A stretch of 64,000 bases of DNA from the NCBI GenBank assembly GCA_028707125.1, contig JAQTUX010000001.1, forward strand, positions 1,130,438 to 1,194,437. The letters are read 5' to 3'. This document shows positions 3,537 through 26,852 of this stretch, piece after piece. Each line of letters starts with the position of its first letter. Positions within the stretch are counted from its first letter, which is position 1. Position numbers and translations under genes: made by a program. Source of the stretch: Candidatus Omnitrophota bacterium. GTDB taxonomy: Bacteria; Omnitrophota; Gorgyraeia; Gygaellales; JAQTUX01. The notes beneath the pieces are model-generated. The model had not been told where the DNA came from. It saw nothing but the letters and a program-made list of their open reading frames with translations, and ran no database searches.

Positions 3537-4298
3537 CTAAATCTTTGCCAAGGCCTTAATCCCTCTCTCTGTTTTGACTCTAAGTTTTGAAGCGCGGGAA
3601 TCGCTGGGCTCTACTAAGACAATTGCGTAAGTAGTACCATCTTTGTGGACTCTTAAAGGAGAGGTCAAAACCCCAGCTGGTTCGCAGGCAATTTTTACTG
3701 CTTCTGTGCCGTCATAAAGACGTAGCCCGATATCAACACTACCCCAAGCTTGAAGTTCATAAATACGAGCGCTGCTCCATCTAGTCTCATTACCGTGCCC
3801 ACCGGTATTGGTAGATATCCAAATTCTTACTCCTGAGCAGTTGAGATTAAGGTCTATGTTCTGCCGTCCGGAATCTTGATGCGTTTGGACATCGCCATCA
3901 TCATCATTTCTGCAATCGCTAAAGGAAGTGTATGGACCGGTAAAATCCTTCCATTCAGAACCGTCAAGATACTGAACCTTTGCATAAGTATCTATTCCCG
4001 GGCTGTTGTCGGCGTATGAATAAGCGTCTAAACCCCATCTAAAAGATAAGCGGGATATCCTGTAATCCTTATTGAAGATATGAGTGGAGCTGGTTTCGTA
4101 ATATCCTCCCCCGCCATAGTTTCCTGCCTGAGGAGTGTCAAAATCACCATCTATCGAGATAGGTCCTGCGCCTACATTTGTCCCTACATATGTATGTGTT
4201 GTGGCGGGTAATGTGACTATATCGGTATCGGCCTGTACATATCCCGCTAATACTATTGATCCGAACAAAACAAATAGAAAAGAGATAATCTTCTTCAT
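3537..4298 (-). CDS. Secreted hypothetical protein, possibly with a discoidin/F5-8 type C-like domain
   Basis: Signal peptide MKKIISFLFVLFGSIVLAGYVQA. The start is taken at the internal Met to avoid overlap with the upstream gene. The C-terminal region has RISRLSFRW...ARIYELQAWG, reminiscent of galactose-binding-like domains. Weak. Confidence 0.5.
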   Translation of the reverse strand: MKKIISFLFVLFGSIVLAGYVQADTDIVTLPATTHTYVGTNVGAGPISIDGDFDTPQAGNYGGGGYYETSSTHIFNKDYRISRLSFRWGLDAYSYADNSPGIDTYAKVQYLDGSEWKDFTGPYTSFSDCRNDDDGDVQTHQDSGRQNIDLNLNCSGVRIWISTNTGGHGNETRWSSARIYELQAWGSVDIGLRLYDGTEAVKIACEPAGVLTSPLRVHKDGTTYAIVLVEPSDSRASKLRVKTERGIKALAKI

Positions 4299-4792
4299 TG
4301 ATCTGTCCTTAGCCAAACCTGGCCTGTCTCAGGTGATGCAGGGTCAGATGTCCTCGTCTCAATAATAAGGCCGCCCGTTGCTTTTATTTTACCTTCGGCC
4401 TCATCAGCTTTTCCCGCCCTCACGGCATAACCGGCAGCGGTGAGCTTCTGTCTGGGTGTCATCTCCGCGTCCGGGGGTATCTGAATGCCAAGCCAATAGG
4501 GCTGGTCGAATTTGACGCTCTCATCCGGGAATGAGCCTAAGATAGTTGAGAAGATGCCGCCGCTTGATACAGGGACGCTCTTTGTGTCGCTCCAGATGGC
4601 GCTGCCCCCTGACTCCTGTGTGTAGAGCCGAAAGGTGATGCTCACTGTTCCTTCCGACAAGGGTTTGCCATCTTTGTCAGTCAGCCGGCCCTGATAGGAG
4701 ATCTCACGAGGGATACCGGCAAAAGAGCTAAAAACGAAAAGTGAGAAATGTAAAATGCAGAGAAAAATGATTGTTTTGAATAGTGGTTTCAT
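4295..4792 (-). CDS. Secreted protein with tail-fibre-like N-terminal domain (paralog A)
   Basis: Signal peptide, then ISYQGRLTDKDGKPLSEGTVSITFRLYTQESGGSAIWSDT. This motif is typical of the N-terminal repeats of 'tail fiber domain-containing' proteins. The first ~125 aa are near-identical to ORF 5647..6438. Confidence 0.6.
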   Translation of the reverse strand: MKPLFKTIIFLCILHFSLFVFSSFAGIPREISYQGRLTDKDGKPLSEGTVSITFRLYTQESGGSAIWSDTKSVPVSSGGIFSTILGSFPDESVKFDQPYWLGIQIPPDAEMTPRQKLTAAGYAVRAGKADEAEGKIKATGGLIIETRTSDPASPETGQVWLRTDQ

Positions 4793-5646: not shown

Positions 5647-6438
5647 TTAGTTTCCTATTGGTATCCAATAAACAACATCTGCCTCTATCACCTTCCAGTA
5701 ATCATTTTTCCTTACTGGAAACATGATGCTCGCTTCGAATTTATGGTCTCCCTCCGGCGACGTAGTATTACCGACTATCATCCGCTGCGTTGTGGGGGGA
5801 TTGCCGCTGTCGGTATAACCTCTTAATTCATTTCTGTTGTCCTGATTTGTCCTTTGGGCTAATACAAAACCATCGGTTAAGGCCTGATAAACTGTGTCGG
5901 AACTTTTAGATGCCCAACTTCCGAAAAGTTGTTTTACCCGTAAATTCCCGCTACCGACTTCTATTGTATTATTGTCAACCTTATCAGATAGGTATAAGGC
6001 CCCTGCTGTATCATTGCTATCACTTCTAATTATAGCCCGCTCTGCCATATTAGCGCTCTCCGCCCTCACCGCGTACCCTGCCGCGGTGAGCTTCTGTCTG
6101 GGTGTCATCTCCGCGTCAGGAGGTATCTGGATACCGAGCCAGTAGGGTTGGTCAAACTTTACGCTCTCCTCCGGAAACGGGCCCAAGGTGGTTGAGAAGA
6201 TGCCGCCGTTTGATACAGGGACGCTCTTTGTGTCACTCCAGATGGCGCTGCCTCCTCCCTCTGTGGTGTAGAGCCGGAAGGTTATGGTGACTATACCTTC
6301 TGCCAGCGGCTTACCGTCCTTGTCTGTGAGCCGGCCCTGATAGGAGATCTCACGGGGGATACCGGCAAAGGAACTAAAGGTAAAAAGCGAAAGGTGAAAA
6401 ATGCAGATAAAAAATAATATCCTGGTTGATGATTTCAT
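5647..6438 (-). CDS. Secreted protein with tail-fibre-like N-terminal domain (paralog B, longer C-terminus)
   Basis: Signal peptide plus ISYQGRLTDKDGKPLAEGIVTITFRLYTTEGGGSAIWSDT. Paralog of 4295..4792 with a divergent C-terminal 140 aa. Confidence 0.6.
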   Translation of the reverse strand: MKSSTRILFFICIFHLSLFTFSSFAGIPREISYQGRLTDKDGKPLAEGIVTITFRLYTTEGGGSAIWSDTKSVPVSNGGIFSTTLGPFPEESVKFDQPYWLGIQIPPDAEMTPRQKLTAAGYAVRAESANMAERAIIRSDSNDTAGALYLSDKVDNNTIEVGSGNLRVKQLFGSWASKSSDTVYQALTDGFVLAQRTNQDNRNELRGYTDSGNPPTTQRMIVGNTTSPEGDHKFEASIMFPVRKNDYWKVIEADVVYWIPIGN

Positions 6439-6623: not shown

Positions 6624-7028
6624 TTACTTTGTGTACCAACTACCACAAAAGATATCTTCAACTATACCATCTTTAAAAGTAACCGTACAATTTGGAGCTA
6701 AAGTTTGCAATAAAGCCCCCTTGTAATACCAAAAATCGTAGTCTTTCCTGTTCCCATCTTCTCTAATCTGATCTTTGGAATAATAGTATATGTCGTTAGG
6801 AGCACCCCAAGATGCTCTCACATCAACTTTTGTCATACCCCTTATAACTCTTCCTTCAATAATGGCCTTTTTCGTTTCGGGAGATAATGCTGGCTGACTC
6901 TGTATATACTCTTTCTTTAAAGCTATGCTGGGTTTCCCCATAGGTCCCGCCGCAGAACAACCTTCAATTACTATCATGGCTAATGATATAACGGCAATAA
7001 AGACGGTACTGGTTTTATCCTCTGCCAT
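6624..7028 (-). CDS. Small lipoprotein, putative immunity protein for the upstream RHS toxin
   Basis: Signal peptide with lipobox-like ...IEGCSA. It lies immediately 3' of the RHS gene (6-nt gap), which is the canonical immunity position. Confidence 0.45.
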   Translation of the reverse strand: MAEDKTSTVFIAVISLAMIVIEGCSAAGPMGKPSIALKKEYIQSQPALSPETKKAIIEGRVIRGMTKVDVRASWGAPNDIYYYSKDQIREDGNRKDYDFWYYKGALLQTLAPNCTVTFKDGIVEDIFCGSWYTK

Positions 7029-7034
7029 AAGATT

Positions 7035-10000
7035 CTATTGAAAATAACGTACTTGACTATTAGGCCCTATGCCATACCAATCAGGATAACCGGATTTATC
7101 TAAAACTGCACTATTAAATGTAGAACAAACATACTGACCAGGCAACATGCCATAAGTAATCTTTTCTTTAGCTAAAGACTTGGCGGCATCAATAACATAC
7201 TGATTGCGACGGAAGCGATTAGAAACATATGCCTGGCGTTTTGAATAGCCTTTTTCAATATTAACTATACCGGTTCCAGTTTCCCAAGTTGAATGCGCCA
7301 TTTCTGTTTTATTTAACATAATCCCTGTATGAGAAAAAATCCCCCCTTCAAATAAAGCTATGCCCCATCCAATAGCGCTATCTGGTTTAAAAAATACGAC
7401 ATCTCCTCCTTCAAGATTTTGTTCTCCTAAGCTTTGCGTAGGTGTAGCAAGTATCCCTCCCACAGTCTGCCCCAAAGAATGTAAACCGCCTTCCCGTGCT
7501 CCCTCGCCAAAATCTCCACCCAGAATCTCAGCAGACACTCCACCGGCAACGATTTCCGCTCCCAGTGGCCAAACACTACCTCCAATATAACCAATTGTCC
7601 CGCCAGCAAATCCTGCTAAAGCGCCTAGGCCAACATCACCTCCCAGCATTGCTGAAGCAGCTGCTCCGGCGCCAGCGCCGCCTAAAGCAGAAGCTGCTAA
7701 TCCAGACCAAAACCCACCTCCCCAGACCGCGCCAACTCCCGCACCTATCCCAAAACCTACTAAACTACTGGCAAACCCTATGCCAAAATTCTGAGCAAAA
7801 TTGCCACGTTGGCTACTGGCAGCAATTAGGCTATATGTTGCCATCCCTAAAAAAGGATTACCAGTAGCGATACCAACAACAGTACCTACAATAGCAGCGA
7901 CAAATCCACTGATCTTTTGCCAAAACTTCTTGAACCATCCGTATCCGCTGGGATCCACATAGTTAATGGGATTATTACGGCAATAAGCGTAACGATTCAG
8001 ATCCTGCGGATCATACGGATGCTGTATTGTCGGATCAGGCGTAATAAATCTGCCAATATACGGGTCGTAATACCTCGCCCCATAATAATACAGACCGAAT
8101 GAATCAAGTTCTTTGCCGGTGAAGTGGTAGTTGGTGGCGGACTCAACGCTCGTTTGTTTGGCGAACGATCCGTATGGCGTATATTCGTTACGCTCTATTG
8201 TCTCTCCGGACTGGTTGGTAATCACATTGCTTGAACCGAGGTGGTCTGAATGGTAATAAATCCTCTGTCCATTTGTGATGGTGCAAATCCTGTTTGAGCC
8301 GAGGAAGACGTGGAATTTAACTGCTCTCTCGCCTCCTGTTGTCTCTTCAATCTCATAGGCAGAGCTAAAATAAGTCGTGGTTGAGCCCGCGCTGATCTTC
8401 TTTATGCGCTCGGTAGATACGCCATATACGAAGTTAGTGCGGCTGCCTTGCGCATCTGTAATTTCTGTAAGCCGGTTATCGTAATCATATTCCATATTAC
8501 GGCCTGCGCCGGAGGTCATATTGCCGTTCAAATCGTAAATATAAGAGTATTGCCCTGCTGATGTTACCGCGTGCGGAAGGTTACCGTCGTAGCGCAGCGC
8601 GCCGACATCGGACTTGTAGGTCATATTACCGATTGAATCATACCTGTATTCCAAGCTTCGGAATGTCCCCGGGAACTGCGGGTCAGGTATATTCTCCGCT
8701 GCCACCAGCCGGTCTAAATCATCGTAGCGGTAGGCGCGGGTTTTATGGTCCGGCAGCATTTCATCGCTAATAGAGGCAACGTTTCCGTTATTATCAAAAT
8801 CATAAGTGAGTTTTTGGATAAGACGGTCAGGGCTGTAGGTATTGATCTCCTTGAGGCGCAGGTCATCTCCGTAAGCATATCTGGTATGGACTCTGTTCCC
8901 AAAATCCACATCATGCATTTTACCCTGGGCATCATAGGTAATGTCGTAGGCGTAAGCGCGCTCCCTGCCCCTTACCATCTCCAGCAGGCCGGAATTACTA
9001 TCGTAAGTATAACTAAGGGTTTCAGTATCGTCAGGATACTGAACCTCAGTAACCCTGCCCAGGATATCGTAAGCGGTCTTGGTTACATAAGTATGCCCGT
9101 CGATAATCTTTCTCGCTTCCTCCGTCCTGCCTTCATTATCATAAAAATATATTGTCTGGTATTCGTTGACATCGGTTACCTTGGTGATCCGGCCGATGCA
9201 ATTTGAATCGTCTATTTGCGGGTCATCATAGGTATCGTAAAGGTATTCTGCCGCGACTTCGCCGTTGTAAATCTTTTGTCTGAGGCGGTTAAGCTCATCA
9301 TAGCGCAATTCAATGGCCTGTCCCTTATTATCGGTCTGGAAGCGCAGGTTGCCCATTTTGTCATATTCATAAGAGGTCAACCCTGTATCCGGGTCGTTCA
9401 GCGAACTCTTCCTTCCCAAGGAATCATACTTTATGTCTGTCGTATTCCCCTTATTGTCAATCACCCGCACAAGGTTATTCTGCGAGTCAAATTGATATTG
9501 GGTGCGGTAATAGCCCCTTCCTGAATCAAAATAAAGCGGCGCCTCCATATTATCGGTGTTTCTGACAAATTCCCTGATCTCCGTAGTGTTGCCGAAGACA
9601 TCCTTGACCGCGCCCTTTCTGTTGCCTCTGGCATCCTCTGTTTCGACATAAGAAACGGTTTTATAGAACGTCCTTGCTGTGGCGTCCTTGCTTGAACCCG
9701 GGAAGTCGGCAGTTACAGAGACCGCCCTTGAGCGCAAGTCATATTCGTATCTGGTATAGGAGATATTGGCCGGCTGCTCATCAAAGTAATGCGGCAGTGA
9801 CTCTGCCTGCACAAACCCGCGCCGGTTATAATAGGTCTCTGTGGCAATATCCCGCCTGTTGTCGCCGTCCTCTCCGTTTGAAACGGCTTTATATTTACGG
9901 CCCAGGCCGTCAAAGTGTTCGGTCGTGACCAGATTAAGCTGGCGGGTGATCTTTGTCTTAAAATCAGGATACTCGTAGGCAGCTACCACTTCCGCGTCTG

Positions 10001-13000
10001 TATTCAATTCTTCAACAAGCCGCCCCAGAGAATCATAATTTGTGGTAGTCGTATGGCCGTTGGCATCTGTAAGTTGATGCACAGCGCCGAATTCAGGATA
10101 ATAGGAATAAGATACTGTATGTCCGAGTTCGTTACTTATGCTCTGCGGGAAGGTGTAAAATTCGGTTTCATACGCGGTATCTACCGCCTTGAGGTTGGCG
10201 TTTATTGCGCGGATAACGTTACCGTAATCATCGTATTGATATTCTGTGGACGGGCTGTCTTGAGGGTCGGTATTCAACCAGGCGATTTCTTTCTTTAACA
10301 GGCCGTCATCATAATACTCAAAGTCCTTACGCGATACTTGGATGCCTTGCTCGTCTTTCAATACTGCATAGTGAACGTTATTAAAACCGACTTCATACGG
10401 AGCATTATATACGGTTATGCCTTCTCTTTCATCGCCCGTGGTCTGGCCTTCTATCTCACTGCCTGCCTGTCCTACCTCGCCGTAACTTATCTCCCGCGCT
10501 ACATTACCCAGTCCATCGTACTCAAATCCGCTCTTTAATGTAATAGACGTGGCCGTATCCTCATATTTTTCATAGGCAGTGGTAAGGACTTCTTTCAGGT
10601 GCGGGAAGGCAATGCCGTCTTGCGGCCCTGCCTTTGCCACTTCCCAGGTATTTATAACCTTGCTTACCAGTTTAGGCGTGATAGACCTGCCGTAGTCCTC
10701 ATAGGCGTAGATCTCCTTGATTTGGCCCTTTAAGGGAACTGTTTCTTCTATCTCACCAAGGTAGAAATACGTCTGTGTATAGTTAAGCGTAACAGGGTCT
10801 ATTGAAGTTACCTTGCCAAAACCGCGGAATTCGCGCTCAACAGCATCATAGTAACCCTGCTCAAACTTAAATTCCTGTGTATATGAATTTGACCTGTCCA
10901 CATCAAAACCAACATCCGATCTGTTAGGATAATAATCGCGCTCTATCGTATCGGTGGTAGTCACCTGACGCGTTATATATAAAGGAAACGGCAAGGCCAA
11001 TTTCTCATCCTGCCTGGTATAGTCATATTCAACGGAGACCAGGCCGCCTTTGCCGTTGTTGACCTCTACCAGAAGATCCGCGGGTCTGCCCGTGCTGGTC
11101 CTCACCGACCATCGCTGCAGGCCGGGCCTCTTTTTATCATACAGCGCGGCGTCGGCAATGCCATCACCATTAATATCAAGGGTGGTGGGCGACTGATCCT
11201 TTGAGCTGGAATAATTGATCCATACGCCGCTGTCGCCATTGAACGCGCTGCCGGTATTTATCGCCTGATGCCAATCCGAGCCGCCTTCAGGCAGATAACC
11301 CACGTCTGTTAAACCATCATTATTAAAATCGGCAACGAAGGCATCTTCCTTAACGGAAAATCCGGAAAGCCAGGTGCCCCTGTCTAAAAACTGCCTGTTA
11401 TTGGAAAGGGCCACCCTGAATTCACCGCTGGTTTTCTTAAATATACAGATGTCTGCCAGGGAATCGCCGTTAAAATCGCCTACCAAGGGTGTCCATTCCT
11501 TGCTTGAGCCAAACCCGCTGATCCACTGCGTAAATCCGGAAAACCCTGAGCCGTTGCCTAACGCAACCCTGGCCTCCCCTGATTCCCAGTTATAAACCCC
11601 AAAATCAGTAAAGGCATCTCCGTTAAAATTGCCGGTTAGAGGCGCCCAGTCATTGCCTGCTTCGCTGAATGCAGCCCATTCGCTTGCGCCTGTAAAAGAC
11701 GACTTGGTAGATGTAGCAATCTTTAATTTGCCGTCCTTATAATTATATACACCTGCATCCCCTACGCCGTCTCCGTTAAAGTCGCCGCCTATGGCAATCC
11801 AGTCCTCGCCGCCAAAGCCGGTCAGCCAGTCACTTACATACCTAACCTCGCCTGCCTCTGAAAGCCCGATTTCCCACTTTCCGTCTTCGGGATTATACAG
11901 CCCTAAATCGCTAAGCCCGTCGCCGTTAAAGTCGCCGCCTATCGGCCGAATTTTATTATCGGGCTCCACAACGTTAAAATGTATGATATCAGACAAAACA
12001 GAACGGCCGTCATCGGTCTCTATCTTAACCTGGATTGTCTCGTTATTACTTACTGCGCTGCCTGCGTTGGTAGTTACGGAGAACTCTGCACCCACAGCAG
12101 TTCCTGAAGCAATCTCTGTCCCGTTCTTCAGGATGGTATAAGTCATACTACGGCCCTCGGGGTCGTAGGCATTAATCATAATATCAAAACTCTCATTCAC
12201 CAGGAATACATAGGGGTCCCTGTTTAAACTCACGCTAACCTCAGGCAGTAGCGAGACATTCAATACCGTAATCTGCACATCCTGGGAAACATCGGCAAAG
12301 CCGTCAGAGGCAACAATCGTTACGATATAAACTCCGGCGTCATTATAGGTGGTCTGCCACCTTCCGTCTGATTCAATGGCCGCGCTCTTGCCTTGCTCAT
12401 TCTGACGAGGAACAAAAGAGTAAACAATGGTATCGCCGGTATCCAAGTCCTCAACTACAGGGCTTATAGTAAACAGCTCGCCCTCATTGGCAGTTAACTC
12501 AACGTCCTGTCCGCTGACATTGATACCGTTAATGCTTACGAAGCGCGGAATCCGGTTAACCCTCTCAACGATAATGCGGAAATACTGCTCGTGATAGACC
12601 TCTGCGGTAACGCTGTCTACCAACTGCACGCTGACCCGTTCATAAATATAATTCCCGTGCCCGGGAGGCACCCTCCAGGTATTCTCACCTATCATCTCCC
12701 AGTCAGTTAAGGGATAACTAAAATTGAACGCATAGTGGTCGCCTTCCCTGGGATTTAAAATCTGCGGGCTAATAGTTATCTCTGTGCCTGCCGAGACCCT
12801 AATTTCATCAATAGGGGCAATCAGCGGCGTAGGACTAACCTGTAAAGTTACGTCGTTGCTGTATACAATATTGCCGGCACTATCTTCCGCGATAAACCTG
12901 ACTGTTTCGCTTCCTAAAAAGTCAGCCGGCTGGCTGAAGCTCACCAGGTTTTCCTGGTTAATCGTAATAACTATCCGATTGTTCCCGCTGAAGGAATACT

Positions 13001-13403
13001 GCAGGGCATCGCCTTCCGGGTCCTGAAAGTAATCATCCAGATCAAAGGCGTTGGGATAATCTGTACCGATGTCCCATGATATAGGGGCTATCTGACGGAT
13101 AAGCACAGGCGGGCTGTTATAGATCAAAGTAGGAATAAAACCTGCGCTAAGGCGGTAGTTTAAGCTTGAAGCAGCGCCTATAAACGGCTCGCCTGCGGAA
13201 TCTAATTGTATTTTATTGTTGAGAGAGCCCTTGCCTGAACCGCCCTCATTGATCGATGAGGACTGGAGCCGGTAATTTAAGCTGGCGGCAACGTCGGCAA
13301 GCGCGTCATTAATAGGGCCGAATGCGGCTATATGCAGAAAGATGAGCGCGATCGCTATCGCGCGCCTTGTTAAACTAAATTGTTTTGACCAGAAAAACTC
13401 CAT
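7035..13403 (-). CDS. RHS-repeat polymorphic toxin (TcC-like), 2122 aa: signal peptide, Ig-like region, FG-GAP/VCBS repeats, YD/RHS repeats, RHS core, glycine-zipper segment, C-terminal toxin domain
   Basis: Repeated GDFNGDG...D.G.YN FG-GAP units and many YD repeats (YEYDGLGN, YDSLGRL, YDELNRL). The RHS core ends in GARYYDPYIGRFITPDP...NYVDPSGYGWFKK. A Gly-rich zipper region follows. The C-terminus carries GDVVFFKP...FSHTGIM...YVCSTF, which suggests a permuted papain-fold (YiiX/LRAT-like) hydrolase. Confidence 0.85.
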   Translation of the reverse strand: MEFFWSKQFSLTRRAIAIALIFLHIAAFGPINDALADVAASLNYRLQSSSINEGGSGKGSLNNKIQLDSAGEPFIGAASSLNYRLSAGFIPTLIYNSPPVLIRQIAPISWDIGTDYPNAFDLDDYFQDPEGDALQYSFSGNNRIVITINQENLVSFSQPADFLGSETVRFIAEDSAGNIVYSNDVTLQVSPTPLIAPIDEIRVSAGTEITISPQILNPREGDHYAFNFSYPLTDWEMIGENTWRVPPGHGNYIYERVSVQLVDSVTAEVYHEQYFRIIVERVNRIPRFVSINGINVSGQDVELTANEGELFTISPVVEDLDTGDTIVYSFVPRQNEQGKSAAIESDGRWQTTYNDAGVYIVTIVASDGFADVSQDVQITVLNVSLLPEVSVSLNRDPYVFLVNESFDIMINAYDPEGRSMTYTILKNGTEIASGTAVGAEFSVTTNAGSAVSNNETIQVKIETDDGRSVLSDIIHFNVVEPDNKIRPIGGDFNGDGLSDLGLYNPEDGKWEIGLSEAGEVRYVSDWLTGFGGEDWIAIGGDFNGDGVGDAGVYNYKDGKLKIATSTKSSFTGASEWAAFSEAGNDWAPLTGNFNGDAFTDFGVYNWESGEARVALGNGSGFSGFTQWISGFGSSKEWTPLVGDFNGDSLADICIFKKTSGEFRVALSNNRQFLDRGTWLSGFSVKEDAFVADFNNDGLTDVGYLPEGGSDWHQAINTGSAFNGDSGVWINYSSSKDQSPTTLDINGDGIADAALYDKKRPGLQRWSVRTSTGRPADLLVEVNNGKGGLVSVEYDYTRQDEKLALPFPLYITRQVTTTDTIERDYYPNRSDVGFDVDRSNSYTQEFKFEQGYYDAVEREFRGFGKVTSIDPVTLNYTQTYFYLGEIEETVPLKGQIKEIYAYEDYGRSITPKLVSKVINTWEVAKAGPQDGIAFPHLKEVLTTAYEKYEDTATSITLKSGFEYDGLGNVAREISYGEVGQAGSEIEGQTTGDEREGITVYNAPYEVGFNNVHYAVLKDEQGIQVSRKDFEYYDDGLLKKEIAWLNTDPQDSPSTEYQYDDYGNVIRAINANLKAVDTAYETEFYTFPQSISNELGHTVSYSYYPEFGAVHQLTDANGHTTTTNYDSLGRLVEELNTDAEVVAAYEYPDFKTKITRQLNLVTTEHFDGLGRKYKAVSNGEDGDNRRDIATETYYNRRGFVQAESLPHYFDEQPANISYTRYEYDLRSRAVSVTADFPGSSKDATARTFYKTVSYVETEDARGNRKGAVKDVFGNTTEIREFVRNTDNMEAPLYFDSGRGYYRTQYQFDSQNNLVRVIDNKGNTTDIKYDSLGRKSSLNDPDTGLTSYEYDKMGNLRFQTDNKGQAIELRYDELNRLRQKIYNGEVAAEYLYDTYDDPQIDDSNCIGRITKVTDVNEYQTIYFYDNEGRTEEARKIIDGHTYVTKTAYDILGRVTEVQYPDDTETLSYTYDSNSGLLEMVRGRERAYAYDITYDAQGKMHDVDFGNRVHTRYAYGDDLRLKEINTYSPDRLIQKLTYDFDNNGNVASISDEMLPDHKTRAYRYDDLDRLVAAENIPDPQFPGTFRSLEYRYDSIGNMTYKSDVGALRYDGNLPHAVTSAGQYSYIYDLNGNMTSGAGRNMEYDYDNRLTEITDAQGSRTNFVYGVSTERIKKISAGSTTTYFSSAYEIEETTGGERAVKFHVFLGSNRICTITNGQRIYYHSDHLGSSNVITNQSGETIERNEYTPYGSFAKQTSVESATNYHFTGKELDSFGLYYYGARYYDPYIGRFITPDPTIQHPYDPQDLNRYAYCRNNPINYVDPSGYGWFKKFWQKISGFVAAIVGTVVGIATGNPFLGMATYSLIAASSQRGNFAQNFGIGFASSLVGFGIGAGVGAVWGGGFWSGLAASALGGAGAGAAASAMLGGDVGLGALAGFAGGTIGYIGGSVWPLGAEIVAGGVSAEILGGDFGEGAREGGLHSLGQTVGGILATPTQSLGEQNLEGGDVVFFKPDSAIGWGIALFEGGIFSHTGIMLNKTEMAHSTWETGTGIVNIEKGYSKRQAYVSNRFRRNQYVIDAAKSLAKEKITYGMLPGQYVCSTFNSAVLDKSGYPDWYGIGPNSQVRYFQ

Positions 13404-13405
13404 AT

Positions 13406-16400
13406 TTAATTCTCTGTTGCCCTCTGGTAATTAAATGTAAGCGCCGGAAAACTCTTGCCGTCGCTGCCGTATTGAGTAACGCTCTTAAGCAATGAGCGGG
13501 ATGTGTCGTCGCTTAAGACATATTCCAACTCATACCTCCAGATTAACCTTGCGTCCAGCAGGACGCGGATGCGCTTAAGCCGCTTATTTATACTGATCTC
13601 CTCCCCGCTGATAAAGCTGGAGGTTACATCAGGCCTGTCTTCGGTCTCAAACTCCACCCTGTGCTTGGGCGCAAAGCCGGCCACGTCGTTACCGGTATAT
13701 TCAACGCTATTGAGATACGCCTTACCTTTATCCTTTATATAATTAAATCTCACATAATTTGCCTTGGTATCCTTGACCTTGGTTACATACCAGGTAAACG
13801 TCCCTCCCGAGCCGTTCTCTTTTGATTCAGGAGTCGCGCCGAATTCCATAACCGTGCCGTTCTTCTCTACGCTGCGCCAGGTATCCGCCTCCTTGTAGAA
13901 CCTGGTAAAGGTTGACTCTATCTTTGCCTGCCAGACGTTATCGGTCAGATGCACCAGCTGCGTTGAGGAGCTCTGGGTGCGGAATACAAAGGTGTCGCTG
14001 TCGTCGTAACGAGCAGGGCCTTTTCGTGTATCCCTGACAATGTATCCCGGCTCAAGCGACCAACCCATGCCTGCCCAGGAATTGGAGCCGGTTGTGCGGT
14101 ATTGCAGAGTTAAATTCGGCTGCATTCCTTTTCTTCCCGGAGGCACGGTTATAGGTACGGAATGACTGAAAGAGCCGGTAAGCATATCAGGCAGAGGGAT
14201 CATTGTGCTTGCGCCGACAGGCGTGCTGGGAGGAGTAAGATTTCCTATGATCGCGTAAGTTGAGAAATGGCCTAACTGGAAAGACGCCTTACCGTAAGAG
14301 TCAACAACCAGGTTTTGCACGGTCTCCATTACCCTGCTTGACTCATTGTAATAGCGAAGTTCTAACGGTGTGCCCGGCACTTCGTGCTGAACAACTGTTA
14401 CCGTCAGCGGTTGACTAAACTGCAGCCCATCAGGCAGGAATTTTATAGCTGTCTTTACGGCATATCCGGGCACCTTATCTTCAAATGCCGCCTTATCCAG
14501 CAACTGCACCCTCATCTGAGCCCTTTGCTCAGCGCCTAATCGCTCATATGTATCCTGCGGAATATCTATAACTACCTTGCCGTCAAAAAGCTCTACCCTT
14601 CTTCCCTCCACCGTCTCCACAGGCTCATCAGGAGGGGGCGACCTGAACAGCTTTATGCCCGAAATCGTATGGTGGGCTTCGGCATTGCCCGCCTTATCCA
14701 CTGACCAATATTCCAAAATATTATTATCTGATTCGCGGGTGATCTGCGGCTGTCCGTTGGCTGCCACACTAAGAGGGGTGCCTGGATCCACGTTATTTAT
14801 GATATAGTAGGTATCCCTGACACCGGAGGTGGCGTCTTGCGTGCTAAGAGGTATAGCAAGGGAAACCCCGTAGTAGGCGCGGGAAGCATCAAAATCTGTG
14901 CTTGTAACCGGGGCGGCGGTATCCAGGATTATATTCTTAGATACAGCATCAGACCAGGCATCTGACTGTCCGGCCCTATTATCGCTTACCCTCACATATA
15001 CCGTCTTCACGCCATCGCCGGAAGCCAAGGCCCAGTTCTTTGTCCGCGCAAATGATTCAGGAACAGACCATGAGTCACCATCATTAGAAAATTGTATCTG
15101 ATCAAGCCCTGTTTGATCATCCCTTGCCTCTATGTTAAGCGTGACTTGTATGCTATTGGTATATTGGGCATCGCTGTTGATACTGAAACCTGTAATTACA
15201 GGGACTATTCTGTCAAGAATAGCAAAATACCACTGTATTTTAGATATATTACCGGCGAAGTCGCTGATGGCCAGATCTATACTGTAAAATATAGAAAATC
15301 TCAATGGCTCCGCGGGGGCGTAAGAGATGATGTCGCCTTCCACTGCGGGCACAACTACTTCTGTTGACGGTTCGACCCTGTCTAACGGCCCAACAACGCT
15401 GAGCGTCATCTCTATGCCGCCGTAATTTACCCCTGAAAGGCCGTCGCCGCACCTCGCGCTAACCGTGGGGGTCTCTTCCAGGAAAGTAACAAGCCAATCC
15501 AGAAGGTTTGTTATCTGAGGCGCTGTCTTATCCAGCTTTATGCCCTCTATTATATGATGGGCTTCTTCATTACCCGCGTTATCCACCGACCAGTACTCCA
15601 ACCTGTTATTAGCGCCTTCTGCGGTAATTACCGGCTGTCCGTCTACCCCTACGGATCTCTGAGGCCCATTGTTGACTTTATAATAAGTATCTGACACTCC
15701 TGATGTTGGGTCTGCCGCGGTCAAATCTACGGCTATATCTGCATTATGCCATGGCTGGCTGTCAAAACTTGTGTTTGTTATCGGAGGGGTCGTATCAAAT
15801 ATGATCGTCTGGGTCAGCATCTCTGACCAGTTACCCGCCTTGTCGCTTACCTTAATAGATACGTTCTTCTGGCCGTCTCCGGGATGCAGGCCCCATCGCC
15901 AACTCTCTTTAAAGTCGTAATCCGGGCTCCAAGACCTGCCCATATGATTTGAAATCCGCATTTGAGCCAGGGCGCCGCTATCATCATTCGCCGCGATGCT
16001 AAGGGTCACCAATCTGTCATTGGTATACTCAGCGCCGTTGTTTATGAGCAGCGACGTAACTACGGGGGGCGCAGTATCAGGTGGCTCATTGGTGCGGAAT
16101 GTAAGGTCGCCTGACTCCTCGGTATTACCGGCCAGATCAGTTACTACTATCTTAAAATGATAAAGGGTGCCTGGCGTTAAGCCCTCCAGGAGCGCTGAAT
16201 TGCTGCGGGTGAACGGCCGTCCGTTTGCGGTCTTTCCGTAATCCTGAGTCAATCCGTAATGGACAACTCCACCGGCCGCCTCGGAAGTCGCCCAGTTGAT
16301 CTCTATATGCGTCTCTCCCTGGTTTGCGAAATAAATCTGCCGTATGTCCGGAGCGGTCTTATCGATCACTACGCCGTCTGAAGGAAGCGACCACCGCGAG

Positions 16401-16792
16401 CTATAGCTCAATGCCATGATGCTTGATACTATTCTTACGCGGTATCGGTATGAGGACTTTGCTGTCTTGGGCGAGGCGGAATTATAAAATGTATCGTGCG
16501 TGTAAGTAAGCGTGCGCCAGACGGCGCCATCTATTGATTCCTGTAATTGATAAAGCGGGTTGCGTGCGGGTATTTCTGTTTCAGGCCTCATCCAGTAAAC
16601 AACATATGTACCTGAACTGGAATCTATATCAAAGCCGCCTTGCTGCCGCGCCTCCTGAGGCGCGGCAGGGACATAATCTCCGATCGCGTCTTCAATGTCG
16701 TCAGCGAAAGCGCTTACACAAGAAGTAAAAAATAAAAGGAAAACAGCTAATAATGCTGTCTTCCTTTGAGTGTCTCTAACCTTAAAAGGCAT
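13406..16792 (-). CDS. TcB-like protein, 1128 aa: signal peptide, fibronectin-III-like domains, C-terminal SpvB (Salmonella virulence plasmid 65 kDa B protein) domain
   Basis: N-terminal signal MPFKVRDTQRKTALLAVFLLFFTSCVSAFA. Repeated FN3-like blocks (TAPDI...HYGLTQDYG...LTPGTLYHFKIV; ILDTAAP...YWSVDKAGNAEAHH). The C-terminal region IPLPDMLTGSFSHSVPITVPPGRKGMQPNLTLQY...GMGWSL...VEYTGN matches the SpvB/TcB N-domain. Its stop lies 2 nt before the RHS gene start. Confidence 0.75.
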   Translation of the reverse strand: MPFKVRDTQRKTALLAVFLLFFTSCVSAFADDIEDAIGDYVPAAPQEARQQGGFDIDSSSGTYVVYWMRPETEIPARNPLYQLQESIDGAVWRTLTYTHDTFYNSASPKTAKSSYRYRVRIVSSIMALSYSSRWSLPSDGVVIDKTAPDIRQIYFANQGETHIEINWATSEAAGGVVHYGLTQDYGKTANGRPFTRSNSALLEGLTPGTLYHFKIVVTDLAGNTEESGDLTFRTNEPPDTAPPVVTSLLINNGAEYTNDRLVTLSIAANDDSGALAQMRISNHMGRSWSPDYDFKESWRWGLHPGDGQKNVSIKVSDKAGNWSEMLTQTIIFDTTPPITNTSFDSQPWHNADIAVDLTAADPTSGVSDTYYKVNNGPQRSVGVDGQPVITAEGANNRLEYWSVDNAGNEEAHHIIEGIKLDKTAPQITNLLDWLVTFLEETPTVSARCGDGLSGVNYGGIEMTLSVVGPLDRVEPSTEVVVPAVEGDIISYAPAEPLRFSIFYSIDLAISDFAGNISKIQWYFAILDRIVPVITGFSINSDAQYTNSIQVTLNIEARDDQTGLDQIQFSNDGDSWSVPESFARTKNWALASGDGVKTVYVRVSDNRAGQSDAWSDAVSKNIILDTAAPVTSTDFDASRAYYGVSLAIPLSTQDATSGVRDTYYIINNVDPGTPLSVAANGQPQITRESDNNILEYWSVDKAGNAEAHHTISGIKLFRSPPPDEPVETVEGRRVELFDGKVVIDIPQDTYERLGAEQRAQMRVQLLDKAAFEDKVPGYAVKTAIKFLPDGLQFSQPLTVTVVQHEVPGTPLELRYYNESSRVMETVQNLVVDSYGKASFQLGHFSTYAIIGNLTPPSTPVGASTMIPLPDMLTGSFSHSVPITVPPGRKGMQPNLTLQYRTTGSNSWAGMGWSLEPGYIVRDTRKGPARYDDSDTFVFRTQSSSTQLVHLTDNVWQAKIESTFTRFYKEADTWRSVEKNGTVMEFGATPESKENGSGGTFTWYVTKVKDTKANYVRFNYIKDKGKAYLNSVEYTGNDVAGFAPKHRVEFETEDRPDVTSSFISGEEISINKRLKRIRVLLDARLIWRYELEYVLSDDTSRSLLKSVTQYGSDGKSFPALTFNYQRATEN

Positions 16793-16849
16793 AGGGTACC
16801 TTTCGTTCTCTGACCCTTAACGCTAGTATACCTTAAGAATCGTGTTTTG

Positions 16850-17343
16850 TCAATGGTTGAACGTATTCCAGGTCATTATTCCCACCGAGCAAAGGGCTGA
16901 AACGATCACCGAAGCCAGCAGCACGCCGCCGATAATGGCGGGGAATGCGTATCTGAAGCGGATTTTGAATAATGAAGCGGCGATCGCGCCTGTCCAGGCG
17001 CCGGTCATAGGCAAAGGTATGCCGACAAAGATCATAAGGCCAAGCGCCTCATAACGCTGAATAATATCGCCCTTTCTCTTTGCCCTTTCAAAAAGCCAGT
17101 CAAAAAACCGGTTGAAACCCGGCAGGTGCCTGAGCCGCTCTGACACCGGCTTAAGGAACACCAGCAGCGGCACAACCGGGATCAAGTTGCCTATGATGGA
17201 AAGGAAAATTACCCTGCCTAATGGCAGGCCTAAATAAAGGCCCCAGGGAATTGAACCCCTCAGTTCTAATATCGGTAAAGACGCGGCGGCTATAACAGAG
17301 GATTCCTTCGGCAGCCCCTGAAGCCAATGTATCAGGCTATTCA
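16850..17343 (-). CDS. Small multidrug export protein family (COG2426-like) membrane protein
   Basis: LPILELRGSIPWGL...GNLIPVVPLLVFLKP...GAWTGAIAASL pattern. The start is placed at the GTG near 17343 to avoid an 86-nt overlap with pcm. Start uncertain. Confidence 0.5.
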
Positions 17344-21843: not shown

Positions 21844-22746
21844 TCACCACCTGCGCCCTATGCCGGCGGTTATAGCCGCTTCCTTTTCTGATTTGAGCAA
21901 CTTAAGGAATGCCTGGCCGTCGGCTCCCCATATATCGTTTGAAAGCGTCAGGTCCATCTCCGGGCCTTTGCCAAGCCCGTGCTTAAGCCCGAATGTGATC
22001 GCGCCTGTTTCACGCTTGACAGTCCATTTACCGTATAAAACTACCGTCCGCTTAACCGGCTTAAACCCCACACCCACCTCATACTTTATTGAATCCCTGT
22101 TCAATCTGCCCATATCCGCGCGGAGTTCAAAACCGGAATCATCGCTCAAAGAATACGATAAAGCATACGGCCCCTTGATATCCCAACGGCCCCTGAAGGT
22201 CAAAGTCGACTTTCCCTTACCCCGCCTCTTTTTATAACAGTATATCAGGTTATGTTTCTTATCCAGTTCCCAGACGCCTTCAAGGGTCAAGGTGTCATAT
22301 TTGGCCGCTTCCTTCTTCACTCTGAACGTAAGCTGATTGTGTTTATTCGCCTGCCAACTGCCATCCAGCTTAAGAATATTTGTGGATACGCTGTCCTTGC
22401 TTCTGGTGGTTACGGCGAACAGAAGAGTATGCGCCTCAACGTGGGCTATCTCACCTTGCAGGGTAAGTTCATCGCCCAAGGTCTGCCTGTGCCAGTTATC
22501 AAGGGTAAGTTTTAAGTTGTGCTCTTTGGTCAACGACCAATCACCCCTTAACTTCACTTGATGAGGCGCGTCAGGGCCTTGCCTGTCCGGAGCCTTTACG
22601 TGGTATATCAGGGAATTTTTGGGGCCGATCTTGAATTTGCCATCCAGGACCTTGCGGAAGCGCTGCACGCGGGATTTCCTGCCGGTCTCCCCTATAATCA
22701 GCCGGTTATAGGGGTCAACTTCATAGCGAACCTTGTGCAAAGTCAT
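21844..22746 (-). CDS. Hypothetical protein with internal beta-rich repeats
   Basis: 300-aa ORF with a repeated ~40-aa pattern (LTLDNWH...LTLQGEI; LTFRVKK...LTLEGVWELDKKHNL; LTFRGRWDIKG). No recognisable family. Confidence 0.4.
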   Translation of the reverse strand: MTLHKVRYEVDPYNRLIIGETGRKSRVQRFRKVLDGKFKIGPKNSLIYHVKAPDRQGPDAPHQVKLRGDWSLTKEHNLKLTLDNWHRQTLGDELTLQGEIAHVEAHTLLFAVTTRSKDSVSTNILKLDGSWQANKHNQLTFRVKKEAAKYDTLTLEGVWELDKKHNLIYCYKKRRGKGKSTLTFRGRWDIKGPYALSYSLSDDSGFELRADMGRLNRDSIKYEVGVGFKPVKRTVVLYGKWTVKRETGAITFGLKHGLGKGPEMDLTLSNDIWGADGQAFLKLLKSEKEAAITAGIGRRW

Positions 22747-23249
22747 CCTAAATTAATTCGCTTAATCTTTATAATCTTACATAGGCGCATTAAGGTATAT
22801 AAAGTAATATTTTTCCTGCCCTCTTCAATACGCGAAATATCCGGCTGCTTCATGCCTGCTATCTGCGCCAATTGCCTCTGGCTCAAGCCCATTTCAAGGC
22901 GCGCCTCTTTAAGCATCATTCCGACTTTCCGGTATAAGTCAGGCATCCTGCCCGGTGATTTCTTTTGTGTATGGCGGTATTTTTCAATAAGTTGTTCATA
23001 TATTGTCTCCCACCAGTCGCGAAAATCCGACTGCCGGCTCATTTTAACCCAATGAGAACGGATCTTAGGCCAGGCGCGGATAAATTCTTTCTGCGCCACA
23101 ACAGAAAACAGCTCCCTGGGACTGTCGCAGCGGGAAAGCAGGGCAACCATCCGCCTGGCATAATCAGGGTGATTCGGATCTCTTAAAACCTTTTTGACCC
23201 CCCTCAAGGATTTGCGGTTTAAATCCCAGAAATATTTTGAAATATTCAT
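22743..23249 (-). CDS. XRE-family HTH protein (C-terminal HTH_3)
   Basis: LKEARLEMGLSQRQLAQIAGMKQPDISRIEEGRKNITLYTLMRL. It overlaps the upstream AbiEii-like gene by 4 nt. Confidence 0.65.
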   Translation of the reverse strand: MNISKYFWDLNRKSLRGVKKVLRDPNHPDYARRMVALLSRCDSPRELFSVVAQKEFIRAWPKIRSHWVKMSRQSDFRDWWETIYEQLIEKYRHTQKKSPGRMPDLYRKVGMMLKEARLEMGLSQRQLAQIAGMKQPDISRIEEGRKNITLYTLMRLCKIIKIKRINLG

Positions 23250-23977
23250 TCCATTACCTCGCGTATGAACTTCTTTATTTCATCTTCAAGATAAAAAATC
23301 ATCGCTTTTGAATTAAATTTCTTGTCATAAATATCCATATCAAGAAGCGCCAGCTGAAGCTCCTGCCGGGAAAACGTCCGATACCAATGCACCATCCCCC
23401 TCTGCCACAGAGAAGGAACGCCTTTTAAGAATCTGTGCAAAGGCAGGATCTTTTGCGAAAGCATATATAAGTCAAATACATCGCGCGCCGCTTTACGGCC
23501 CTCCATTATCTCCCTGCCAACTTCATCCGCTTCCGGGCGCATGCCTGCGATAGCGCCGATCTTCTGTAGATATATGCTCTTTGCGCTGTATACCCGCACG
23601 CCTTCAAACCTCTCAATATCCGGCTTGTCAAAAAGCACATCCTCAACAAAATCTATCTTCAAATATCTCCTGGAGCCCTTGATCGGAACCGCGTAAAAGC
23701 GCACCCTGGCCTTATTTGGAGAAACGAATTCCGATTCCTGCTTTATGCGCCGGCCGATATTTTTCTGAAGCGCGGCGATAATACTGCCTATTTCTCCTTT
23801 AGCGAATTTCGGCGAAAAAAAGTCCAAATCAGCGGAAAAGCGATGGTGCAGATAATACAGCTCAAGCGCGGTCCCCCCTGCCAGGGCAAAATCCTTCGCC
23901 TTACCGGCAAATACCTTTAGAACGTCTTTCTGCGCCTTCCTTATCGCCCTGTCCATACTGCCCCTCCAATATGCCAA
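23246..23977 (-). CDS. Nucleotidyltransferase, AbiEii/AbiGii toxin family
   Basis: Hallmark FALAGGTALELYYLHHRFSADLDFFS motif. ~240 aa. Confidence 0.65.
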   Translation of the reverse strand: MAYWRGSMDRAIRKAQKDVLKVFAGKAKDFALAGGTALELYYLHHRFSADLDFFSPKFAKGEIGSIIAALQKNIGRRIKQESEFVSPNKARVRFYAVPIKGSRRYLKIDFVEDVLFDKPDIERFEGVRVYSAKSIYLQKIGAIAGMRPEADEVGREIMEGRKAARDVFDLYMLSQKILPLHRFLKGVPSLWQRGMVHWYRTFSRQELQLALLDMDIYDKKFNSKAMIFYLEDEIKKFIREVME

Positions 23978-26462: not shown

Positions 26463-26852
26463 CTATTCCCCTCCATAAAAATCAAGTATTTTTCCATTGG
26501 TTCGATCAATAAAGATTATTGCAATCCCTCCTAGCATCGGCTTTTTTGGTATATATGAAACTACCCAATACTTTCTTCCATCATTATGCAGCTTCCTGAT
26601 TTTTTCTTGTAAAATAATGGGAAAAAATGAATCGACCTCCTCCCAGGCCATCTCTTCATTATCGGCTGTTATCTTCAAATCGTTTTCGGATAAAGAATCG
26701 CCTCTTCTTTCTAACTCTTTATTTCCTATCCCTATTGCTTCTTCTAAAGTTATCATTAACCCCTCTTCCTGTAATGCATTTGAAATTTTGCCCGAGCAAC
26801 CAGAGATAGATAGGACTAACATAACAGCTAAAGATAATTTTAATAGTTTCAT
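26463..26852 (-). CDS. Lipoprotein, putative immunity protein for the RHS DUF4329-like toxin
   Basis: Signal peptide plus lipobox LSISGCSG. It overlaps the RHS stop by 4 nt. Homologous to 25146..25532. Confidence 0.55.
   Translation of the reverse strand: MKLLKLSLAVMLVLSISGCSGKISNALQEEGLMITLEEAIGIGNKELERRGDSLSENDLKITADNEEMAWEEVDSFFPIILQEKIRKLHNDGRKYWVVSYIPKKPMLGGIAIIFIDRTNGKILDFYGGE

Follow-up and report, generated by a model that had tools for sequence, protein, structure and literature searches.

We analysed a 64,000-nucleotide (nt) stretch of contig JAQTUX010000001.1 from a Candidatus Omnitrophota bacterium (GenBank assembly GCA_028707125.1, forward-strand positions 1,130,438 to 1,194,437; hereafter the window) and found three adjacent, co-directional genes on its minus strand that probably form a polymorphic RHS-cocoon toxin operon of the TcdB/TcaC type, working without a TcA injector and building its cocoon from two separately Sec-exported proteins. 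Gene 1 encodes an adhesin-like protein that ends in the SpvB segment of a TcB shell, gene 2 encodes the rest of the shell together with the predicted toxic cargo, and gene 3 encodes a small lipoprotein that is a candidate for the cognate immunity protein. The three open reading frames, their minus-strand coordinates and the 2-nt junction between genes 1 and 2 had been reported in a first-pass annotation of this DNA, and all of these were borne out (Table 1).

Injector-free toxins of this general class are known already. Zhang et al. (2012, Biol Direct 7:18; PMC3482391) defined 'TcdB/TcaC' polymorphic toxins that combine a signal peptide, SpvB, a propeller and RHS repeats without TcA, included an N-terminal ZU5 autopeptidase and NlpC/P60 tips in the definition and proposed that ZU5 releases the toxin at the cell surface; to call the present system undescribed, as had been done in the first-pass annotation, was therefore too strong. 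How TcB-TcC cocoons reach their targets without TcA has been an open question since that comparative-genomics definition. The locus shares with the class the signal peptide, a domain resembling the optional ZU5, SpvB, the integrin-like propeller, RHS, a polymorphic tip, an immunity gene, orphan cassettes and the lack of TcA (PMC3482391): all domains are present in canonical order, over two polypeptides, the immunity gene lies downstream, and tips recur as cassettes in the related loci L008, L009 and L011. What is new relative to the class is a conserved two-gene layout, divided precisely where SpvB meets the propeller, in which the second protein has a dedicated, conserved leader and an Ig-like module; the permuted (His before Cys) YiiX-like tip family behind a glycine-rich segment, the word 'permuted' being absent from PMC3482391; the lipoprotein immunity family of this tip, that paper listing no immunity protein for Tox-NLPC/P60 and one lipoprotein immunity family overall; and the recurrent neighbourhood of genes for proteins resembling mosaic adhesive trimer (MAT) fibres.

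New, too, is the occurrence of such a system in genomes labelled or resembling Omnitrophota, and no description of SpvB/RHS cocoon toxins was found in the Omnitrophota literature that we examined. Bacillus subtilis WapA and other Sec-exported RHS toxins likewise combine a Sec signal, an RHS shell, a C-terminal toxin and a downstream immunity gene and act in contact-dependent antagonism; WapA differs in that it lacks SpvB, propeller and ZU5, is a single polypeptide and belongs to a one-membrane bacterium.

A TcB-TcC domain series on two polypeptides

Between them, the two large proteins carry the full TcB-TcC domain series in canonical order, as revealed by Pfam and NCBIfam matches and as the first reading of the locus had claimed. 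The end of protein 1 matches SpvB (PF03534, E=6.4e-18, aa 872-1025; aa, amino acids), and a family profile of this region matches the N-terminus of TcdB2 at E=8.9e-20 as well as TcdB1, YenB and Salmonella SpvB at E about 1e-19. In addition, an AlphaFold2 (AF2) model built from a 41-sequence alignment (predicted local distance difference test, pLDDT, 88.5) superposes on YenB and TcdB2 with a Foldseek E of about 2e-15, so that sequence and structure prediction both support the proposed SpvB/TcB N-domain at the end of gene 1. The FG-GAP propeller and the RHS shell that had been assigned to gene 2, and also an Rhs-associated core, all returned positive profile matches (Table 1), with the core match covering positions 1-75 of the 76 positions of TIGR03696, and TcdB_toxin_midC was not detected in the Pfam scan of protein 2. 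The core contains PINYVDPSG, an instance of the autocleavage motif PxxxxDxxG of TcC proteins (PMC7861908), and because PINYVDPSGY|GW fits this motif we predict that the cargo comprises aa 1822-2122, that is 301 aa and within the typical range of 201-400 aa for Tc cocoons (PMC7861908).

With the BC cocoons of known structure (TcdB2-TccC3, 4O9X and 6H6G; YenB-YenC, 4IGL) the locus has in common the SpvB segment, by sequence and by fold at the E-values given above, the propeller, the TcdB mid region, the RHS shell and the Rhs core. It departs from them in the position of the polypeptide break, which separates the SpvB segment from the propeller rather than TcB from TcC, such that the TcB-mid and TcC parts are fused. 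Moreover, no TcA is encoded in the window, TcdB_toxin_midC is missing from the matches, and Sec signals, adhesin-like domains, a ZU5-like domain and a candidate immunity gene are present. B-C fusions and orphan TcCs are on record (PMC7861908).

Division of the cocoon between two genes is a conserved layout that the first-pass annotation had not recognised, and here it was seen only in genomes that carry an Omnitrophota label or resemble Omnitrophota. All 46 of the closest SpvB relatives are short proteins (243-510 aa) whose precomputed Pfam domains consist of SpvB only, plus ZU5 in some, and most of the few that carry a source name come from Candidatus Omnitrophota. When relatives were aligned, 13 of 14 ended at the last column of the window protein (...F.YQxxx*), and the remaining one, from Nitrospirota, runs on into an FG-GAP repeat instead. 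A scan of one genome per species gave 67 related loci, 66 of which were scored by script, and in 20 of the 66 the SpvB stop lies at most six residues from that of the window, at 40-49% identity. Most of these 20 split loci bear an Omnitrophota label and a few are labelled Planctomycetia or merely 'bacterium'. The gene is fused instead in more distant relatives (Planctomycetes, Verrucomicrobia, Kiritimatiellae, Lentisphaerae, Kangiella, Desulfobacteria, Bacteroidetes and others) and in some Omnitrophota-labelled loci. Seventeen of these 20 loci have a shell gene downstream of the SpvB gene on the same strand; split locus L034 has just 1.6 kb of downstream sequence.

The second protein has its own beginning. 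Its leader is conserved far beyond what is seen in a generic signal peptide, with an invariant His inside the hydrophobic core, and tblastn with the N-terminal module (aa 1-480) matched this leader only in split loci and in L061, whose SpvB match is truncated. The conserved motif pair that follows the leader was found by the same search only in split loci, and the fused locus L073 returned just a weak match to aa 348-443. A word-indexed protein search with the conserved leader alignment found no other proteins with this leader at E<=1e-3. The sole similarity found for the leader and the double SxSYxL motif was to NCBIfam CPR_pilus_PamT, at 25.6 bits versus a cut-off of 240; a donor-strand or pilin-like reading of the motif pair was considered and rejected because such matches (about 22-26 bits) are too weak.

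These data bear directly on the possibility, raised with the first description of the locus, that genes 1 and 2 are one BC-fusion gene that falls into two pieces through a frameshift, a sequencing error or recent pseudogenisation. A spacer of only 2 nt (a TAA-at-ATG junction), a change of frame and the existence of fused homologues in other phyla would all fit a broken gene. Yet the stop is conserved in 20 loci, the downstream frame opens with its own leader and about 450 aa of extra domains that went undetected in fused forms except for the one weak partial match, and other genes intervene between the SpvB gene and the shell gene in L003 and L004, from which we conclude that the split is real. 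Furthermore, Logan SRR22315508, an independent public assembly, contains an identical gene-1 protein, and the surrounding genes were called there with the same order and lengths. We rejected the frameshift or pseudogene reading on these conservation data and consider it extremely improbable.

The interval between the two genes in L004 (8503..13716, JGI 3300028032), where they lie 5.4 kb apart, holds a bAvd-like gene, bAvd being an accessory of diversity-generating retroelements, as well as MAT-like genes and small genes arranged in four tandem pairs, one of them with a weak PIN match. Locus L007 has upstream LpxL-GT2-PCMT genes in common with the window.

Both proteins have the Sec-type signal features that had been noted for them, judged by eye from a positively charged start, a hydrophobic core of 10-14 residues and AFA|D or ALA|D at the cleavage site. 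Classical TcB and TcC are cytoplasmic proteins that are not known to carry signal peptides. A lipoprotein anchor for gene 1, suggested by a lipobox-like FTSC within the signal peptide, was rejected since the relatives have SPase-I-like sites and no consistent lipobox. The adhesin-like region of protein 1 spans ~690 aa and ranges in relatives from none to ~700 aa. As to the earlier claim of FN3/Ig-like surface domains, the fn3 match in protein 1 is borderline, just above its cut-off (25.9 bits versus 25), its Ig-like domains score below the Pfam cut-offs, and two OmpL47-type barrels are present.

Directly before SpvB lies a ZU5-like domain with a conserved HFS motif, both of which had been overlooked. 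The Pfam evidence comes from orthologues (P0014: E=7.8e-7, 29.7 bits versus a cut-off of 21). In the AF2 model, this part (pLDDT ~90) matches the ankyrin ZU5 domain 3f59 (probability 1.0, TM 0.55, E=9e-3) and also the ZU5 domain of UNC5b, and a disordered linker then leads to SpvB. The motif HFS(T/A/V)Y is kept in 10 of the 10 aligned relatives that have this ZU5-like region; the relatives include clades with ZU5 and clades without it. In PIDD, ZU5-type domains cut themselves at HFS, as does the related domain of Nup98. Cleavage between Phe843 and Ser844 would leave a 285-aa SpvB fragment held non-covalently on an adhesin-like stalk.

From the sequence, it is plausible that the three genes form an operon, because gaps of 2 nt and 6 nt separate them, a promoter-like match lies upstream of gene 1 (Table 1) and the scan of the locus found no terminator-like site at either gene junction. 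We treat the promoter-like site as weak evidence, given that the total count of such sites was not above the shuffled expectation.

Cargo, toxin tip and lipoprotein gene

The predicted cargo starts with a Gly/Ala-rich hydrophobic segment (aa 1822-1989; 26% Gly, 16% Ala) that has a single charged residue between positions 1831 and 1922. It contains 16 GxxxG motifs versus 11.0 +/- 2.5 in composition-matched shuffles and 49 small-xxx-small motifs versus 39.6 +/- 3.3. For this segment, read earlier as a glycine zipper, Pfam and NCBIfam scans gave no Pfam match and no match to a glycine-zipper family. The conservation of the segment among tip homologues and the presence of a similar GWWKKFW... segment before an unrelated tip in L007 suggest that it may be a reusable membrane-insertion module.

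The toxin tip belongs to a rare family. While a first search gave 9 homologues of the last ~130 aa, an exhaustive profile search of 1.84 billion representatives yielded 53 tip matches at E<=1e-3, with 16 of them reaching E<=1e-10. Proteins 2100-2800 aa long have several of these at their C-termini, and among the matches scanned for domains RHS repeats were detected in nine and SpvB, FG-GAP and TcdB-mid together in five. The His-before-Cys order on which the first-pass annotation had based a permuted papain-like fold was confirmed in that His2025 (FSH[TV]G) and Cys2093 (VCST) are invariant in a 9-sequence tip alignment. The fold itself is supported by the tip profile, which aligns with the canonical NlpC/P60 structure 7cfl in two pieces of swapped order (E=9e-4) and with YiiX (0.012) and 3kw0 (0.0014) in the same order, and by Pfam Peptidase_C92 in 16 of 49 distant matches to the tip family, with LRAT, NLPC_P60 or CHAP in others. 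Searched alone against Pfam and NCBIfam, the window tip gave just a sub-threshold NLPC_P60 match (E=0.05-0.1). As the link to Peptidase_C92 (PF05708) is transitive, we file the tip as a new family in the permuted NlpC/P60 group and not as a C92 member. The window tip ends ~10 residues before its homologues and is without their conserved terminal F.ITR.YG. motif (7035..7060, minus strand).

By analogy, the tip enzyme most likely hydrolyses membrane lipids, with cell-wall cleavage as a less likely alternative: Tox-Act1 is a characterised permuted NlpC/P60 toxin that acts on lipids, and phospholipase activity was found for TseH too (PMC12994826). These two effectors of type VI secretion systems (T6SS) share with the tip the permuted NlpC/P60 core with His before Cys, the His/Cys pair, an envelope-located immunity protein and an antibacterial context (PMC12994826). 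YiiX/YaeF (Peptidase C92; 2IF6, 3KW0) likewise have the permuted NlpC/P60 fold with His before Cys, and lipid-binding pockets are reported for YiiX and 3kw0 (PMC3142127).

The 134-aa gene 3 product has a signal peptide along with a lipobox Cys that is invariant across the aligned homologues (one sequence misaligns in a second alignment). Homologues of 32-41% identity lie directly downstream of all five tip homologues whose downstream gene was examined, namely the tip of L009's main RHS gene and those in orphan cassettes at L008, L009 and L011. After the main RHS genes of L008 and L011, whose tips are of another family, come lipoproteins that form a separate branch of the gene 3 family. A tip paired with a downstream gene is the usual signature of cognate immunity, which makes the lipoprotein a candidate for this role and supports the immunity position given to it earlier. 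The window protein has no match to BamE and four of seven family members have weak ones (best E=1.1e-4). Because solved structures searched with the lipoprotein profile returned for the most part chance matches to haemagglutinin, next to weak ones to BamE (E=0.026-0.5), we regard a BamE-like fold as suggestive only.

Loci L008, L009/L010 and L011, on Omnitrophota-type contigs, encode fused SpvB-FG-GAP-RHS proteins of 2400-2900 aa. Behind the fused genes of L008, L009 and L011 stand orphan cassettes comprising the same tip family and its lipoprotein; the L008 cassette keeps a fragment of the Rhs core, and the array in L009 adjoins a Y1 transposase.

Export, assembly and target

If the cocoon is indeed made from two exported halves, both proteins would cross the inner membrane unfolded and the shell would then fold around the cargo, which the Rhs core would cut free inside the shell after Tyr1821. 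The SpvB segment would dock on the edge of the shell through beta-sheet addition, in the manner of TcB and TcC in Tc toxins, and ZU5 would cut at His-Phe|Ser (842-844), such that the cocoon would hang non-covalently on the adhesin-like stalk and could be let go at the surface of the cell or upon contact. The glycine-rich segment would then insert in a membrane at the target cell and place the permuted NlpC/P60 enzyme at the envelope, where it would most likely hydrolyse membrane lipids like Tox-Act1. The lipoprotein would protect the producer and its kin in the periplasm, and the linked MAT-fibre-like proteins may help in target recognition. We infer outer-membrane passage, assembly from two proteins, both cleavages, the substrate of the enzyme and the target alike.

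Several points weigh against this scheme. No outer-membrane secretion system was found next to the locus, and the search for TcA covered 64 kb of the genome. The window's own ZU5 region gave no Pfam match even at E<=1, and the autocleavage events at HFS and DPSGY|G are predicted from motifs. For the tip there is no direct PF05708 match of the window sequence, the connection being transitive and structural, and the third catalytic residue is not conserved. The tip model was built from 10 sequences only, and the model of the whole cargo is poor overall (pLDDT 58.8), although much of the tip reaches about 80-90, interrupted by dips to the 50s-60s. Finally, the interaction of proteins 1 and 2 is itself a prediction, and the split SpvB genes of L015 and L019 have no shell gene within 10 kb.

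The last two points would fit an arrangement in which the two proteins are independent, ZU5-SpvB being a separate surface protein and the RHS protein closing its shell by itself, and so would the occurrence of the SpvB N-domain outside cocoons, where it is a stand-alone module in Salmonella SpvB (6p0x). We nevertheless consider independence improbable: the downstream, same-strand shell gene is kept in 17 of 20 split loci, the shell protein has a special N-terminal module that hardly occurs outside split loci, more distant relatives have both parts fused in canonical TcB order, and a shell without the SpvB segment would miss what comes before the propeller in all solved TcB structures. Still less probable, in our view, is that the genes are the BC module of a classical Tc (ABC) toxin whose TcA is encoded elsewhere in the genome, with the cocoon docking on TcA via its propeller and injecting a host cell, eukaryotic or other. 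In favour of this, the domains are homologous to those of TcB and TcC, Photorhabdus has orphan TcC genes at a distance from tcA (PMC7861908), and the window covers 64 kb of the genome. Against this stand the signal peptides on both proteins, the lipoprotein immunity gene and orphan tip-immunity cassettes, which point to bacterial targets, and the treatment of the architecture as an export class of its own by Zhang et al. (PMC3482391). Moreover, a domain scan of large open reading frames bore out the earlier statement that the window has no TcA-like injector, since the other frames of at least 1000 aa in the 64 kb encode two further proteins of the RHS type and one adhesin, which has FlgD_ig and PPC domains. 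Shell genes aside, no open reading frame of more than 1349 aa was seen within 10 kb of 23 split-type locus records, as judged by size and by eye and not by a TcA-domain scan. All but two (1090 and 1349 aa) of the large frames near these loci looked by eye like histidine kinases, EF-G, PPDK and an RND transporter.

A different alternative leaves the export scheme untouched and concerns the mode of killing: instead of hydrolysing lipids, the tip might cut peptidoglycan as an amidase or endopeptidase, in the way of the Tae effectors of the T6SS, or else the glycine-rich segment itself might kill as a pore former. Zhang et al. (PMC3482391) predicted that NlpC/P60 tips degrade cell walls, the tip has weak sequence matches to NlpC/P60 cell-wall hydrolases, a periplasmic lipoprotein immunity protein fits a cell-wall target equally well, and the glycine-rich segment is long, nearly uncharged and conserved. 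Given the precedents of Tox-Act1 and TseH for a lipid target, we judge this alternative unlikely, albeit one to be kept in mind.

Many Omnitrophota have been proposed to prey on or parasitise other microbes and to be very small. On this background, one could imagine an injector-free weapon in which an exported cocoon of two halves is tethered by a ZU5-cleaved adhesin, MAT-like fibres aim it at prey and a glycine zipper carries a lipid-cutting enzyme into the envelope; this composite picture is speculative, and we think it rather unlikely to be right in its entirety. If true, it would reveal that Tc-like cocoons can be delivered with neither TcA nor a T6SS and would provide a molecular handle on predation by an uncultured phylum. 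The locus amounts to a natural experiment, with the shell cut at a second position, the halves probably exported separately and a predicted self-cleaving domain at the junction to the adhesin-like stalk, a layout that leads to direct testable predictions on extracytoplasmic assembly and release. It also adds a rare permuted NlpC/P60 toxin family with a candidate cognate lipoprotein immunity protein, a first toxin system to examine in genomes of Omnitrophota, a phylum thought to be predatory or parasitic, and a recurrent link between toxin loci and genes resembling those for the prey-recognition fibres of Bdellovibrio.

Feature coordinates and neighbouring genes

Table 1. Features of the locus and its MAT-fibre-like neighbours, in order along the minus strand (positions are those of the window)
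Feature	Position	Strand	Description	Basis or remark
Promoter-like site	16825..16853	-	TTGACA-17-TATACT, 11/12	in the 57-nt gap upstream of gene 1; best match of the region
Gene 1	13406..16792	-	1128 aa; signal peptide, beta domains of adhesin-like kind, ZU5-like domain, SpvB shell segment of TcB type	
Signal peptide of gene 1	16703..16792	-	Sec-type, aa 1-30; ...SAFA/DD cleavage (AFA before D)	read by eye
Variable adhesin-like region	14642..16702	-	fn3, Ig-like (Big_13, Big_3_2, Big_7, DUF7743), two OmpL47-type beta-barrel domains	Pfam/NCBIfam
ZU5-like domain	14240..14641	-	aa 718-851, ~134 aa; directly before SpvB	Pfam in orthologues, AF2 fold
Predicted ZU5 autocleavage site	14261..14269	-	His842-Phe843-Ser844, HF/S (between Phe and Ser)	motif GHFSTY
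SpvB / TcB N-terminal shell segment	13409..14197	-	aa 866-1128, up to the stop codon	Pfam, profile, fold
Gene 2	7035..13403	-	2122 aa; leader, Ig-like module, FG-GAP propeller, TcB-mid and TcC-like RHS shell, Rhs core, toxin tip	
Conserved leader / signal peptide of gene 2	13296..13403	-	aa 1-36, L..LH...FGPIRDALA, then cleavage	alignment of orthologues
Conserved N-terminal motif pair	13104..13295	-	SxSYKL...GG ... SxSYxLxAGFIP...NPP	alignment of orthologues
Ig-like module	11964..13103	-	Big_9 and PKD-like, to about aa 480	Pfam
FG-GAP beta-propeller	11259..11963	-		FG-GAP_3 1.4e-10; FG-GAP 2.1e-7
TcdB_toxin_midN shell region	10776..11252	-		E=5.2e-17
RHS / YD-repeat shell	8184..10775	-		RHS_repeat 2.8e-25
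Rhs-associated core	7941..8183	-	PxxxxDxxG motif; predicted autocleavage VDPSGY/GWFKK after Tyr1821	Rhs_assc_core TIGR03696, E=1.6e-22
Glycine-zipper-like pre-toxin segment	7437..7940	-	Gly/Ala-rich, hydrophobic, aa 1822-1989	composition, motif counts
Toxin tip	7038..7436	-	permuted NlpC/P60 domain	His2025 at 7329..7331, Cys2093 at 7125..7127
Gene 3	6624..7028	-	134-aa lipoprotein; cognate immunity candidate	weak resemblance to BamE
MAT-fibre-like gene	5647..6438	-	secreted protein, 263 aa; MAT-fibre-like N-terminal domain, variable C-terminus	NCBIfam Bdello_MAT_N
MAT-fibre-like paralogue	4295..4792	-	165 aa; N-terminal domain 82% identical, C-terminus different	NCBIfam Bdello_MAT_N

The two MAT-fibre-like genes downstream of the locus had been overlooked in the first-pass annotation. 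Bdello_MAT_N (NF053851), the conserved N-terminal domain of the prey-recognition fibres of Bdellovibrio (PMC10769870), matches the 263-aa and the 165-aa protein at E=3e-8 and 1.8e-9, with scores of 33.6 and 37.6 bits that are below the curated cut-off of 60. The shared N-terminal domain is beta-rich, about 110-130 aa long and placed directly after the signal peptide, and a phmmer search of the MAT-like protein against solved structures found nothing. As here, the MAT fibres of Bdellovibrio have a signal peptide, the conserved N-terminal domain at once and variable C-termini (PMC10769870); the window proteins are small compared with the hundreds to >1000 residues of the MAT constructs described there. 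MAT-like homologues occur in 23 of the 66 SpvB loci, all from Omnitrophota and the related (PVC-type) group, and lie on the same strand in all but one locus. They are situated 36-560 nt downstream of the SpvB gene in eleven split loci, and most of the others 0.5-3.8 kb upstream. This recurrence suggests a functional link of the MAT-like genes to the toxin loci.

Next to the shorter MAT-like gene, 3537..4316 (minus strand) encodes a 259-aa secreted protein with no family match, whose C-terminal 80 aa are 44% identical to the product of a 251-aa gene that follows the MAT-like gene in L004/L005.

Two more RHS proteins are encoded in the 64 kb, at 26849..30673 and 59520..63734 (both minus strand), one with DUF6531, RHS and a DUF4329 tip and the other with DUF6443, Laminin_G_3 and RHS, and the organism therefore has several RHS toxin loci that differ in delivery type. 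The gene at 31120..38793 (minus strand) encodes a protein of TcA-like size (2557 aa) that was rejected as a TcA since it is an adhesin with FlgD_ig, PPC and CHU_C domains. It has four FlgD_ig, a PPC and internally placed CHU_C / Por_Secre_tail matches, the latter being C-terminal sorting domains of the type IX secretion system (T9SS), which may hint at an outer-membrane export route.

Upstream of the locus, gene calls on the identical Logan contig place a pair of AbiEii-type toxin and helix-turn-helix antitoxin at 22743..23977 (minus strand). A histidine kinase of HisKA_7TM-GAF-HATPase architecture is encoded at 39328..42231 (minus strand), ~22 kb from the locus. Kinases of this architecture, often with a response regulator, were also found within a few kb of the SpvB/RHS loci L002, L004/L005, L008, L022, L024, L034 and L042, and this recurrence could be a sign of a regulatory link.

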